Origin: Candidatus Hodarchaeota archaeon
GTDB lineage: Archaea; Asgardarchaeota; Heimdallarchaeia; Hodarchaeales; Hodarchaeaceae
DNA: 50,522 nucleotides
Assembly (NCBI GenBank): GCA_029856365.1
Contig: JAHQWW010000018.1
Span: forward strand, 1 to 50,522
Direction of reading: 5' to 3'
Position 1 is the stretch's first letter. Each line of letters starts with the position of its first letter. This document shows, one piece after another, positions 45,002-48,410 of the stretch. A program made the position numbers and the translations under genes. A model generated the notes under the pieces. The model was not told the origin of the DNA and ran no database searches. It saw only the letters and a list, made by a program, of their open reading frames with translations.

Positions 45002-45163
45002 GTTAAGCTTTCGAACTAGTGTGTTTAAAGGCTGAAAATAAATGATATTTAAAAGTAAAGCGATATGTAAATGATTCTCTTAATCTGTTTTATTGGAAAA
45101 AAAGGAATTAATATGATTTTATGGATTTTTAACTTTGTAACGAACCCATAGCATCTCAATACT

Positions 45164-46443
45164 TCACGAGGATCGCCTTTTCCGAAGATCATATATACTG
45201 GAACGTAATTTTTTATGGCCTGTTTTGGTGTATTTCTCCTCGCTCAACACATCATTTAACATCTGAACGTTTTGTGCTTGGAGCCTCTGAAGATTTGCTG
45301 ATCCAGTCTGAGAAATTTTTCGGTTAAGCTTTTCTTGAAACATATTCATGGTTTGCTGTGCTCCTGAAAAATCCCCGTGATCCGCCATCGCCATTGCCTC
45401 ATACTGGACAAATGCAGCTTCTAATAAATGCACATTTTCTAAAATATGATCATCTTCCATGGTTAGAAGCTTTTCATCAGTTGTATAGCTAATATTACAC
45501 GAAATTGGTTTGAGATGGATTGGTTCTGTTGATCCACTTCGTGGAACCCATTGAACATTGAATGTTACAGCCTCAATTTCACGTTCTTCATTCTTTATAG
45601 GGGGCATTGTCACATCTAGGATAATTAATAACTCATTTCCACTTCTGAGATCACCCATTTTCGTATTGTTCGATAAGCGGTCTTCGTAAGGAACTCCTAG
45701 CGCCCTTCGTATTTGAACTCCTTCTATTTTTTGCCATGCCACCTCAATATTATAAGCAGCGGTCGTCAGTAGTCCTTGAAATTCTTGTTCAATGAATTTA
45801 GGGATATCAGCAGCAGTTGTAATAAAATAAAATGATCCTCCAGCAACATCAGCTACATTCACCATTAAGTCCTTGTCAAAATCATCACCAACTCCAAAAG
45901 TGCTAATACTAATACCTCCCTCATAAATATCAGTCACAGAGTCTCGAATTCGGCTACGATCAGTGATTCCCTCGTTTACAAGACCATCAGAAAGGAGGAG
46001 AACTACATTCCGATATTCAAGATGTTTTGCTCTTTCAACTTGTTTTGCTCCCTCTATAACACCCCCATGGAGGTTTGTTCGGCCACGACTGCGAACTGAA
46101 CGGAGCCGATTAATGATTGAAGCACGATTAGTAACCTTTGCTGATGAGATAATAGTATCGACTCTATGATCATAAATGGTTAAAGCAAATGCATCATCTT
46201 TTGAAAGATTATTAACAATAATTCAATGGCCTCTTTAGCTTTTTCGAGTTTAGATCCATGCATGCTCCCTGAACGATCGAGAACTACTCCTAAATTCAAG
46301 TTTGTTCTGGAAACTTGGATTTCTCTTCCTGTTGATTTTAATTGAATATAAAGATGTGTCTCACCGTTGGTTAATGCATATGGTGAACTCGGGGTTACCT
46401 CAATGTTAATATCCTCTTGATCTTCTACTTCTATCATAATCAT
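45164..46443 (-). pseudogene. von Willebrand factor A (MIDAS) domain protein, split by a 1-nt frameshift at ~46220 (about 426 aa restored)
   Basis: The 5' part has LGVVLDRSGSM..SKLEKAKEAIE. After GAA TT the other frame reads IVNNLSKDDAFALTIYD...GRTNLHGG...LLLSDGLVNEG with no stop and joins ORF 45164-45937 (STFGVG..FD..LM...GG.FYFI). Confidence 0.85.
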
Positions 46444-46448
46444 TCCTT

Positions 46449-46988
46449 CTATTTGACTTGCTCAAGCTTTTTTTGTACTTTATATACCTTCTCCCCTTTC
46501 TTGGTGAGCTTGTGGCGTTTTTTGGGGCGCCCTGGTCCCATTATTTTCTTTTCTACTGGAAATTCTGGTTTGATTAAACCAAGACTACTTAACTTTTGTA
46601 AGCCTACATTAATCGTTGTAGGAGACATTTTCGCTTTTTCTTGGAGTTCAACCACGTTTATATCTTTATGCTGTTTGATTTGATGGAGAAGGGCACGATG
46701 AGACCGTTTTAGCTCTGTTATCTCAGGATGTTGAAGAATCTGCCGATCAAGGATATCTTCGGCCTGTGGAGTAAGGATATAAGTGCTAGAATCTGGAGGT
46801 CGTCTGATGATAAATCCAGCCAGTTCTAGTTCTTTTAATCTTCTATAGATTGTCGCAGTTGTTAGAGAAATTGAAGTACCTTTTTCTGTAAAATGCTTGT
46901 TGATTTCAGTACTTCTAATAGGTTGAGACTGACTTCTGATAAATTCCAGAATCTCTTTCGTCCCTGTGGAAGCCAGTAAGTCTAACAT
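46449..46988 (-). CDS. Tandem winged-helix-turn-helix transcriptional regulator
   Basis: Two wHTH units: TATIYRRLKELELAGFI...YILT and MSPTTINVGLQKLSSLGLI...GRPKKRHKLTKKG. Confidence 0.85.
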   Translation of the reverse strand: MLDLLASTGTKEILEFIRSQSQPIRSTEINKHFTEKGTSISLTTATIYRRLKELELAGFIIRRPPDSSTYILTPQAEDILDRQILQHPEITELKRSHRALLHQIKQHKDINVVELQEKAKMSPTTINVGLQKLSSLGLIKPEFPVEKKIMGPGRPKKRHKLTKKGEKVYKVQKKLEQVK

Positions 46989-47012
46989 GATTTAAACCCA
47001 TTATAATACTCG

Positions 47013-48086
47013 TTACTCATCAGACATCTGTTCAAGAGTAATTTGTTGTTGAATCCGCGGATCCTGAATATTCTGAACCTGAATCCGAGGCATCCCAGGA
47101 ACCCGATTAGGTGTTCTCCCCTTGAGAATATCGACTTGTTCTTTGGTAGCGTATAGGTGTACAGGATTCCCTTTGTAATGGAGACTGATACCTTGCCATT
47201 TCTTGTTATTGAATCGGAATAGATCACCTGTACCTGTTGCTTTCTCTTTTTTCACATTGATTTCTTTGAATTCATTTTTCAGAATCTCTTCTAAATTCTC
47301 AGGTAGTTTCTGATCTGTTTTCATTTTCTGCATGAATACTCTATCAGTAAGAAACCCTTTAAGCACAACTTCACTAAACTGGTTCCAAAGCTTAGGGGAG
47401 CCATAAATCTCAACACCCAGTAGCTTATCGCCATATACACAGATAATTCCAATCTGGTTCTCAAGCTTTGTTGCTGCGGAAAGTGTTTCTTGGAGTTGTT
47501 TGAGATCTTCATCTTTTTCATATGATTTTTCTTGAAGTTCTCGATAACTATGAGTCGGAGCAGCTTCTTCACCTAGTTGTAATGCGCCCGCTGCAGCATA
47601 TACAGTTTCCCACACTGTGGTCTGATCTCCAGCTTTCGCAGACACATTTGCCATTTGTGAAGCCATTCGAGTTTTAGCTGACTTGAATTTTAAAGAAGTC
47701 GATTTTCCACGAGAGCTGGAGTACCTCCAACGAGACTGTTCAATGCACTTAGCGGGAATTTTTAAAGGATTAAACTGATCATGGCCAATAGGTATGAGAA
47801 TAGGCTCAAAAATGGTTCTATCCTGCTTCCCTCCCTCTACTTGATGAAGATAGGGAATCAAAACTGGGAGATCGCTTTTGTTAATCGCTTCGAGTATTTC
47901 TACACTTTCTGAACCTTCACTTTCCTGGATCCATGCGAGTTCTTGCTCCTCGGCCTCAAGCAAACCTAATACGAGTGTTGATACATCACTCTTAAGCAGA
48001 GGATAAATAGAAAACTTATCATGAGTAACAGGAGTACCAATGTCAAAATAACTTCCTAAATCTTGAATTAATGTTTGAAAATTCAC
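47013..48086 (-). CDS. ARPP-1 / DUF6569-family protein
   Basis: I.E..GSESV..L...N.S..PVLI......GGKQDR.....ILIP...IP..CIEQSRW...DQ..VW...QIG family pattern. Likely start is GTG 48086 after GAGGTG. Confidence 0.75.
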   Translation of the reverse strand: MNFQTLIQDLGSYFDIGTPVTHDKFSIYPLLKSDVSTLVLGLLEAEEQELAWIQESEGSESVEILEAINKSDLPVLIPYLHQVEGGKQDRTIFEPILIPIGHDQFNPLKIPAKCIEQSRWRYSSSRGKSTSLKFKSAKTRMASQMANVSAKAGDQTTVWETVYAAAGALQLGEEAAPTHSYRELQEKSYEKDEDLKQLQETLSAATKLENQIGIICVYGDKLLGVEIYGSPKLWNQFSEVVLKGFLTDRVFMQKMKTDQKLPENLEEILKNEFKEINVKKEKATGTGDLFRFNNKKWQGISLHYKGNPVHLYATKEQVDILKGRTPNRVPGMPRIQVQNIQDPRIQQQITLEQMSDE

Positions 48087-48354
48087 TTTTTTCCACCTCA
48101 ATTTTTTTTAAGACCTTCTCAGCGTAGAGAGTAAGTATTAATCGCTTGGAATTCGTAGGTAATCTAACAAGTAACTTTGCTTGTTCCAATTCTTTGATTC
48201 ACTGGTAAATTATTGCAGTAGTAAGTGTCAAGCTAGGTGATTGAGTGAAATAAGCATTAATCATGGCTGCTGTTGCGCCAGGATTACGATTTAAGTAGGA
48301 AAGAATAACTATCGAACCCTTGGTAGAGAGAAGATCACTAGTTTTTTTCATCAT
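48043..48354 (-). pseudogene. wHTH regulator with an in-frame TGA at codon 52 (48199-48201); paralog of the N-terminal domain of 46449-46988 (not in ORF track)
   Basis: Manual translation: MMKKTSDLLSTKGSIVILSYL...LTTAIIYQ*IKELEQAKLLVR.P..S...ILT..AE.VL. This aligns with MLDLLASTGTKEILEFI...LTTATIYRRLKELELAGFIIR.PPDS..YILT..AE.IL. Confidence 0.8.
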
Positions 48355-48410
48355 GAATTATCAAAAAGTGTAATATTTATAAAACTTTCGGAATTATCAA
48401 AATCTGTAAT
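48355..48410 (-). promoter_or_regulatory. BRE/TATA promoter flanked by two 20-bp operator-like repeats
   Basis: GAATTATCAAAAAGTGTAAT (48355-48374) and GAATTATCAAAATCTGTAAT (48391-48410) are 18/20 identical. Between them the minus strand reads CGAAAG-TTTTATAAAT. Confidence 0.75.

Follow-up and report, generated by a model that had tools for sequence, protein, structure and literature searches.

The question raised by the minus strand of contig JAHQWW010000018.1 between positions 45164 and 48410 is whether it carries a working four-gene system or what is left of a different one. The stretch of DNA analysed (the window) comprises 50,522 nt of this contig, from assembly GCA_029856365.1 of a Candidatus Hodarchaeota archaeon, a metagenome-assembled genome (MAG) of 204 contigs and 4.24 Mb that is 84% complete. 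From 48354 down to 45164, open reading frame (ORF) calling gives five open segments, which the initial annotation had described as four tightly linked genes for a small winged helix-turn-helix (wHTH) protein, an ARPP-1 protein, a double wHTH protein and a von Willebrand factor A (vWA) protein. The minus-strand coding segments are present where they had been placed, but they are not four genes. The correct annotation is two pseudogenes, the small wHTH and the vWA, and two intact genes, ARPP-1 and the double wHTH. In our view the region is likely to be a half-decayed copy of a self-regulated three-gene operon which is restricted to one genus of the Hodarchaeales (Asgard). In the following, genomes are labelled G (G000 being the genome of the window), loci L and sequencing runs X.

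The original form of the operon becomes evident from the other members of the genus. A search of 60 relatives detected ARPP-1 orthologues in 15 of 21 congeners, often within an open frame of about 450 amino acids and not of 364, and the congener operons were read by ORF calling on 11-kb stretches. In eight congeners (G007, G017, G009, G014, G011, G015, G019 and G005) one ORF of 438-472 amino acids covers both the small wHTH and ARPP-1, and it is followed by the double wHTH gene (184-204 amino acids) and by a single intact vWA ORF (422-427 amino acids). The ARPP-1 parts of these intact operons are 50-87% identical to that of the window. As wHTH and ARPP-1 are one ORF in these eight congeners and the vWA is another, the window is to be read as three genes with three lesions. 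It shares with the intact operon the same orthologues, order, flanks and promoter boxes, and differs by an in-frame TGA, a wHTH uncoupled from the ARPP-1 frame and a frameshifted vWA. The gene order predicted in the initial annotation (wHTH, ARPP-1, wHTH, vWA) is thus conserved as wHTH-ARPP-1 fusion, double wHTH and vWA in 9-10 species, all of one genus; outside the genus it does not hold, as discussed below. The surroundings are equally stable. The operon is flanked upstream by a major facilitator superfamily (MFS)/Atg22-like transporter gene and downstream by AIM24 and a divergent PmbA/TldD gene, this MFS-operon-AIM24-TldD synteny is kept across the genus wherever contigs allow, and the G+C content of the locus does not differ from that of its flanks. 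To describe the operon as inserted among housekeeping genes is therefore misleading.

The first lesion lies in the wHTH remnant (48046-48354, minus strand), which consists of a 51-codon and a 48-codon piece in a single frame interrupted by a TGA at 48199-48201. The stop falls in the recognition helix, where the window encodes TTAIIYQ* and the closest intact orthologues TTATIYRR, with Arg at the position of the stop. The second, at the junction with ARPP-1 (48100-48110, minus strand), is by DNA alignment with the congeners a 2-nt deletion in an A-rich linker, which turns TTA-A9-TAATAGGTGG into TTA-A8-TTGAGGTGG and separates the wHTH and ARPP-1 frames. In the third, 1 nt has been lost at about 46216-46222 (GAATTT to GAA-TT), and the vWA frame shifts from about codon 75 onwards. 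The vWA pseudogene (45164-46443, minus strand) is consequently split over two frames, 46180-46443 with 87 codons and 45164-46222, the latter a 257-codon ORF or, counted from stop to stop, 352 codons. The vWA assignment of the initial annotation is borne out, since both pieces match PF00092 (profile positions 2-28 for 46183-46443 and 27-173 for 45167-46222), and DRSGS, the motif of the MIDAS (metal ion-dependent adhesion site), can still be read despite the broken frame.

Between the lesions lie the two intact genes, both on the minus strand. The ARPP-1 ORF (47013-48101, 362 codons; 357 amino acids, 47013-48086, when read from its GTG) was correctly recognised as such: the segment 47016-48101 matches PF20208 over practically its full length (profile 3-296 of 297) with an E value of 6.3e-42 and 144.3 bits against a cut-off of 27, and a whole-genome scan shows it to be single copy. 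The double wHTH gene (46449-46988, 179 amino acids), a candidate autorepressor, has a PadR-like domain at residues 13-64 and a MarR/HTH_24 domain at residues 93-147 by Pfam (46452-46988). The proposal of two related wHTH regulators also stands, with the qualification that the small one is a frame with one TGA.

Whether the damaged and undamaged parts differ in selective constraint was assessed at sites identical in the eight intact orthologues. The window shows no change at any such site in the fusion (0/131), in ARPP-1 alone (0/120) or in the double wHTH (0/47), and nine in the vWA (9/161), or 7/159 when two columns beside the break are left out. The contrast between ARPP-1 and double wHTH pooled (0/178) and vWA (7/159) is significant (Fisher p 0.005) and is not seen in five intact orthologues. 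Measured against the vWA family, the window copy differs at 3 of 57 conserved columns, where 22 orthologues differ at 0-2, and two of its changes, A155V and E190K, affect sites invariant in 81 homologues. Because of this excess of substitutions at invariant vWA sites, set against none in ARPP-1 and double wHTH, the vWA is judged from its sequence to be a genuine pseudogene that began to drift some time ago, with no such drift in ARPP-1 and the double wHTH. In the wHTH helix the changes T>I and R>Q were considered as proof of relaxed selection and rejected, the helix being variable in the distant orthologues G019 and G005.

The nearest species, G006 (89% identical in ARPP-1 and 94% in TldD), carries a second damaged copy. 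Its wHTH has an internal deletion of about 70 codons, its junction a 1-nt deletion, and its vWA has been cleanly deleted except for the first and last few codons; from the alignment, G006 and the window have been damaged in the same two parts, fused wHTH and vWA, through different events. Its ARPP-1 (L020:5031-6074) shows 0/120 deviations at the invariant sites. Between window and G006, ARPP-1 has a dN/dS ratio of 0.10 and the double wHTH one of 0.13, to be compared with 0.13 for TldD and 0.04 for AIM24. On these ratios, ARPP-1 and the double wHTH are evaluated as remaining under purifying selection. About 100 N just upstream of the G006 operon promoter (L020:6330-6430) limit the reading of its upstream neighbour.

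The best surviving alternative, which we nevertheless regard as unlikely, is that the whole operon is a dead relic whose transcription has been lost and whose ARPP-1 and double wHTH genes have simply not yet been hit. Three independent lesions within 3.3 kb would agree with it, as would the further deletions in G006 and a TAA which removes the last 10 residues of ARPP-1 in that species. The low dN/dS values were obtained between two lineages that are both damaged, though, and neither these nor the absence of changes at the 178 invariant sites would be expected of a relic; furthermore the promoter, both of its boxes and the internal Shine-Dalgarno (SD) motif and start codon described below are intact in the window as well as in G006. 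As to the truncated tail, the corresponding residues of the window are QITLEQMSDE, and in the model of the fusion protein the tail is disordered (residues 427-449 with pLDDT < 50). One possible role of the tail is that of a peptide docking to the MIDAS site, G006 having neither vWA nor tail, although this is a single case.

According to the favoured reading of a half-decayed operon, the intact form would encode a wHTH-ARPP-1 fusion, a double wHTH with a matching first recognition helix and an ArnB-type vWA adaptor. In the window the fused wHTH would be dead through the nonsense TGA and the uncoupling 2-nt deletion, and the vWA through the 1-nt deletion and subsequent substitutions at invariant sites, so that a two-gene unit of ARPP-1 and double wHTH is probably still working. 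The promoter region gives a hint as to how this unit may be controlled. The motif ATTACA-N3-TTTGATAA occurs in two copies, against 0.09 expected in the window, and these are the only matches in the 4.24 Mb assembly; the paired operator-like repeats noted in the initial annotation are therefore real. The distal box ATTACAGATTTTGATAA (48394-48410, minus strand) lies upstream of a TATA-like element preceded by a transcription factor B recognition element (BRE), cgaaag plus ttttataaata (48374-48390, minus strand), whose promoter role is deduced from its sequence and the congener alignment; the proximal box ATTACACTTTTTGATAA (48358-48374, minus strand) abuts the ATG at 48354. The two 17-bp, quasi-palindromic boxes thus flank the BRE/TATA-like element, and the TATA-to-ATG spacing of about 25 nt suggests a leaderless transcript.

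A match to the box with at most 2 mismatches is found at the same place in 9/9 related loci for which promoter sequence is available, and most have both boxes. Upstream of where the fusion starts, L020, L021, L023, L024 and L025 have both, L022 and L027 have only one, and the copies of L028 and L032 are degenerate. The distal box in particular is matched in L020, L021, L023-L025, L027 and L028, is absent in L022 and has 2 mismatches in L032. In G009 the twin boxes are preceded, about 120 nt upstream, by a third operator-like box with 1 mismatch (L023:4569-4585). In the double wHTH the first recognition helix, TTATIYRRLKELE, is nearly identical to the helix of the fused wHTH of congeners, and the two proteins would accordingly be predicted to read the same half-site. 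The autoregulation proposed in the initial annotation is in keeping with a twin operator dedicated to a promoter of leaderless type: the double wHTH would bind the boxes which flank the TATA element and cover the start, and so repress its own transcript.

ARPP-1 in turn seems to have a start of its own. At 48084-48099 of the minus strand an SD-like GAGGTGG (48093-48099) is followed after 6 nt by a GTG (48084-48086), where stand-alone ARPP-1 probably starts. At the wHTH/ARPP-1 boundary 9/9 loci, i.e. the window and eight intact fusions (L021-L025, L027, L028 and L032), have an SD-like motif (GAGGTGG, AGGTGG, AGGAG or GGTGAT) and, 6-7 nt after it, a GTG or ATG; a comparable motif is absent from the annotated starts of the other operon genes examined alongside. 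In G019 the encoded residues at this site have changed from RW to RR, yet the SD-like character is kept. This conservation suggests two products from one gene, the fusion and free ARPP-1, the latter presumably translated in the window from the GTG at 48086; the uncoupling from the wHTH would be tolerated because ARPP-1 can apparently be made alone from this conserved internal start.

The vWA and the small wHTH were lost together in two lineages, and their distribution in the genus follows the same pattern. A vWA search in the genus detected a second group, 49-53% identical, in five congeners (G002, G003, G013, G018 and G020), either on contigs other than that of ARPP-1 or in genomes in which no ARPP-1 was found. 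These vWA genes belong to operons without ARPP-1 composed of a small wHTH (122-133 amino acids) homologous to the fused wHTH, a double wHTH (176-186 amino acids) and the vWA (428-433 amino acids); they are located at L075:5995-8228, L076:5995-8195, L077:3627-5860, L078:5061-7260 and L079:1546-3748, with a related box, TTTATACTTTTTGATAA, about 70-130 nt upstream. The small wHTH of this type carries a C-terminal extension of about 45 amino acids with scattered Cys residues. Two other congeners (G001 and G016) have ARPP-1, double wHTH and a GNAT gene and neither small wHTH nor vWA. Three operon types can thus be distinguished: type A with wHTH-ARPP-1 fusion, double wHTH and vWA, type B with ARPP-1 and double wHTH (2 congeners), and type C with small wHTH, double wHTH and vWA (5 congeners). 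The double wHTH is the common denominator of all three, and the window and G006 are type A operons decaying towards type B.

The vWA as well as the small or fused wHTH is present in 13/13 complete type A and type C loci, and both are absent or broken in type B, in the window and in G006; the type A loci of G012 and G008, which are cut by contig ends, were left out of this score. Being present together and lost together, the two proteins are indicated to be a modulating pair and not the core of the system. The constant partners of the vWA are moreover the wHTH proteins and not ARPP-1, since five congeners have the triad without ARPP-1. More tentatively, and with a probability that we would place well below even, the small or fused wHTH and the ArnB-type vWA may form an obligate pair in which the vWA reaches DNA via the wHTH and gates the double wHTH repressor at the twin operator, and which in type A in addition anchors ARPP-1, be it an enzyme or a sensor, at its own promoter. 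If this were so, the window and G006 would be natural double knock-outs in which a gated system has become a simple repressor plus ARPP-1 unit, and there would be a first mechanistic handle on how ArnB-like regulators act on transcription.

ARPP-1 is a large family (2,965 clusters at 50% identity by HMMER in public data; PF20208 in 173 of the 399 Asgard genomes searched) for which a function has so far only been proposed. The window protein has all residues that are invariant in 120 diverse members (E60, Q93, R95, C119, E121, R124, Q160, W164 and G218), and it belongs to the same Pfam family as the ARPP proteins of Iyer et al. 2022 (PMC9503650), whose stressed Cys and Gln residues correspond here to C119, Q93 and Q160. 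Those authors proposed that the family acts on sugar or nucleotide moieties, or captures them covalently, via the conserved Cys (PMC9503650). We predict ARPP-1 to be either an enzyme or a domain that binds a ligand, with Cys, Glu, Gln and Arg in an invariant cluster. The AF2 model of an orthologous fusion (pLDDT 89.8) is beta-rich with helical inserts. Structure searches with this model (Foldseek against PDB and BFVD, and VIA-align wide) gave matches only to the wHTH part, a profile search of PDB sequences with ARPP-1 gave 0 matches at E up to 1, and the ESM Atlas held no usable ARPP-1 match after exclusion of PF20208. The eukaryotic ARPP-16/19/21 proteins are unrelated.

The neighbourhoods of ARPP-1 in other Asgard archaea bear on the idea that the operon is a stripped-down conflict system. 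We annotated 53 ARPP-1 loci, with two genes on either side as neighbours, which gave 147 neighbours at 39 Asgard loci outside the genus; families were evaluated for the 25 commonest, down to those with two members. The commonest at these 39 loci are ArsR-type wHTH families, HTH_20 and HTH_5, with 8 members each. Neither vWA nor ADP-ribosylglycohydrolase (ARG), macro or phosphatase families are among the recurrent (two or more members) families of these 147 neighbours, and among the 53 annotated loci a vWA beside ARPP-1 and the wHTH-ARPP-1 fusion are found only in this genus. ARPP-1 is thus not generally linked to a vWA. In one other Asgard family (f20; loci L044, L048-L052, L072 and L073) all 8 loci have an ArsR/HTH_20-like wHTH gene of about 136 amino acids, 2-21 nt upstream of ARPP-1, and in three further families (L040, L056 and L069) a homologous protein of 143-169 amino acids without a Pfam match (HHalign 97%) is found at -26 to +6 nt. 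Since wHTH and similar genes recur next to it, the recurrent Asgard partner of ARPP-1 is a small DNA-binding protein. This recalls the pair of ARPP and WYL factor of Iyer et al. 2022 (PMC9503650), likewise an ARPP-1 with a transcription factor, the partner here being a wHTH.

At three additional loci (L043:4318-4821, L067:7007-7384 and L074:7029-7376) a small protein which looks ribbon-helix-helix-like, by eye only, is encoded divergently upstream of ARPP-1; it has no Pfam match and does not resemble the wHTH family. Small GTPases (Ras 4, Arf 4 and Roc 3 members) also recur within two genes of ARPP-1 outside the genus, which may reflect their abundance in Asgard archaea. A prokaryotic RING-finger protein (zf-RING_2/Prok-RING_1; L030:6429-6944) is divergently encoded 348 nt from the stand-alone ARPP-1 of G020.

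Both ARPP and vWA, the latter named as a chaperone, occur in ARG systems (PMC9503650), and the operon could on this ground be taken for what remains of an ARG-centred, ADP-ribose-processing antiviral conflict system. We consider this improbable. There is no ARG gene in the operon or its flanks, and among the operon genes there is no coupled phosphatase (rhodanese-phosphatase, calcineurin-like, HD or HAD), Nudix or WYL factor; compared with the ARG systems of Iyer et al. 2022, ARG, phosphatase, Nudix, WYL and HIRAN are all missing, macro is missing too, and the vWA is of the ArnB type. Together with the lack of ARG, macro and phosphatase among the recurrent neighbours, this leaves without support the view put forward in the initial annotation that the operon is a minimal archaeal variant of ARG/phosphatase systems. 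A search of the genome for ARG, macro and MoxR partners did find such genes, all of them on other contigs and unlinked to the operon. The only ARG match (contig C13:5653-5937) is a 109-amino-acid open frame which covers positions 1-112 of a profile of 287 and may be a gene fragment or pseudogene. PADLOC gave no match for ARPP-1 or vWA and, for the double wHTH, only a generic HTH similarity to Csa3/CARF regulators. The stable chromosomal position and a dN/dS of about 0.1 further speak against the variability typical of defence islands.

The vWA points in a different direction, that of gene regulation. The AF2 model of the G009 orthologue (pLDDT 92.1, pTM 0.89) shows strands at the N terminus, a vWA domain with a MIDAS, a beta-sandwich and, at the C terminus, a domain of four helices; DRSGS, T122 and D152 are invariant in the 81 homologues. 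By Foldseek its best match is ArnB in the ArnAB complex (8s05_A, E 3.7e-27, template modelling (TM) scores for query/target 0.73/0.80), followed by a vWA protein of Catenulispora (4fx5, E 6.0e-26, TM 0.73/0.73), ArnE (5a8j, E 1.2e-22, TM 0.65/0.73), ITIH1 (E 3.2e-19, TM 0.53/0.39) and Sec24/Sec23 (E about 1e-14, TM query 0.5-0.6). On the model, the operon vWA has an ArnB-type architecture that is like the core of Sec23/24. With ArnA-ArnB and ArnE of Sulfolobus acidocaldarius (8s05, 5a8j; PMC12852372, PMC6509490) it shares the beta-sandwich, the MIDAS vWA, the C-terminal helices and the context of gene regulation. There the partner ArnA is a ZnF-FHA protein and Ser/Thr kinases and PP2A exert control, whereas the operon described here has no FHA gene and wHTH partners, the identity is only about 18%, and the window copy is a pseudogene. 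The ArnAB paper itself notes homologues in Heimdallarchaeota and the likeness to the Sec23/24 core (PMC12852372).

Sec23 and Sec24 of COPII have the same three-domain arrangement by structure (trunk, beta-barrel and helical), but at more than 700 amino acids they also contain zinc finger and gelsolin domains; the 422-amino-acid vWA has neither and stands in no coat context. The likeness is no evidence for a vesicle coat, because the nearest sequence relatives are bacterial: outside the genus these are members of a very large bacterial family of about 425 amino acids (YfbK-like; 4fx5 of Catenulispora) with the same domain order, 29-33% identity to the orthologue in the alignment and, in the sequence search, about 95% query coverage. 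Among 125 immediate neighbours of bacterial members, none of which is ARPP-1 or a double wHTH, histidine kinases lead with 16, ahead of MerR regulators (9), phosphoribosyltransferases (6) and FHA proteins (2), a context of signal transduction and transcription and not of coat or defence. At many of these loci (L082-L160) a histidine kinase of about 550-590 amino acids follows within a few bases, or a MerR-family regulator precedes. A complex prediction of the ARPP-1 domain with the vWA (intact G009 pair, with alignments) had a score of 0.00, which weighs neither way. In this genome, in any case, the working system of ARPP-1 with a vWA partner which had been proposed is not to be found, because the vWA and the first wHTH are pseudogenes.

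Two alternatives question this last point, and we give very little credence to either. One is that all four segments are expressed and functional, the TGA being read through or recoded and the vWA being made by frameshifting or as two polypeptides. The TGA is indeed the only stop in its frame, with homology extending to either side of it, and the junction and the vWA break are situated in A/T-rich runs. Eight congeners, however, need no recoding, the break divides the vWA fold between beta1/alpha1 and the remainder, the vWA is changed at the family-invariant A155 and E190, and G006 has deleted the same parts outright; nor can the conservation of a SECIS element or slippery site be invoked, because the orthologues differ in sequence there. 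The other, equally remote, is that errors of sequencing or assembly have produced the lesions and the organism itself carries an intact operon, as might be suspected of a MAG of this fragmentation and completeness with two lesions beside homopolymer runs and with unitigs of X1, X2 and X5 that end at 48089, those of X1 and X2 resuming at 48060; against it stand the vWA deletion, reproduced without indel in four separately assembled runs of which two are non-source samples, the excess of substitutions at invariant vWA sites, and a junction which differs by 2 nt plus substitutions and not by a simple homopolymer length error.

The read check consisted of placing on the region the Logan contigs of four runs from four studies (X1, X2, X5 and X6, with X5 and X6 as independent samples). 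The vWA break is spanned without indel by contigs of all four; the TGA and the junction are spanned by contigs of X1 and X2 (two studies). The unitig ends lie within 48028-48089, and one X5 contig near the junction has 4 differences and a loose end, which suggests strain-level heterogeneity just downstream of the junction lesion.

Several points weigh against the reading of the region as a partly decayed, partly working operon. The TGA and the junction deletion are confirmed in only two runs, possibly including the source sample. As dN/dS is an average taken over all of the divergence, the low values would still be compatible with an operon silenced as a whole only recently, and no run recorded as RNA contains the region. 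The T>I and R>Q changes in the wHTH helix are weak evidence of relaxed constraint, given that the helix varies in G019 and G005. The co-occurrence and co-loss of wHTH and vWA come from about 18 loci of one genus which, being phylogenetically related, do not amount to a statistical test. Operator binding, the internal start and the activity of ARPP-1 are all inferred.

The locus nevertheless touches on two subjects at once. ARPP-1 is a widespread family of proposed function, and the ArnB-type vWA, which regulates gene expression in Sulfolobus, has no known link to DNA. The genus offers a compact natural experiment, with operons with and without ARPP-1 and with and without the pair of vWA and small wHTH. 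Two lineages which lost exactly this pair and kept ARPP-1 and double wHTH under selection suggest which proteins should be tested together, and the 17-bp box, unique in the genome, yields with the double wHTH a candidate regulator/operator pair for biochemistry. What the window adds is the natural loss series formed by its own genome and G006, the paralogous operon lacking ARPP-1, the conserved internal start and the finding on vWA linkage.

Of the remaining elements of the locus, a scan for sigma-70 promoters and terminators gave matches not above shuffled expectation, a model which is not relevant to archaea. About 60 nt past the stop of the vWA a run of seven T (45097-45103, minus strand) may, from its sequence, be an archaeal terminator.

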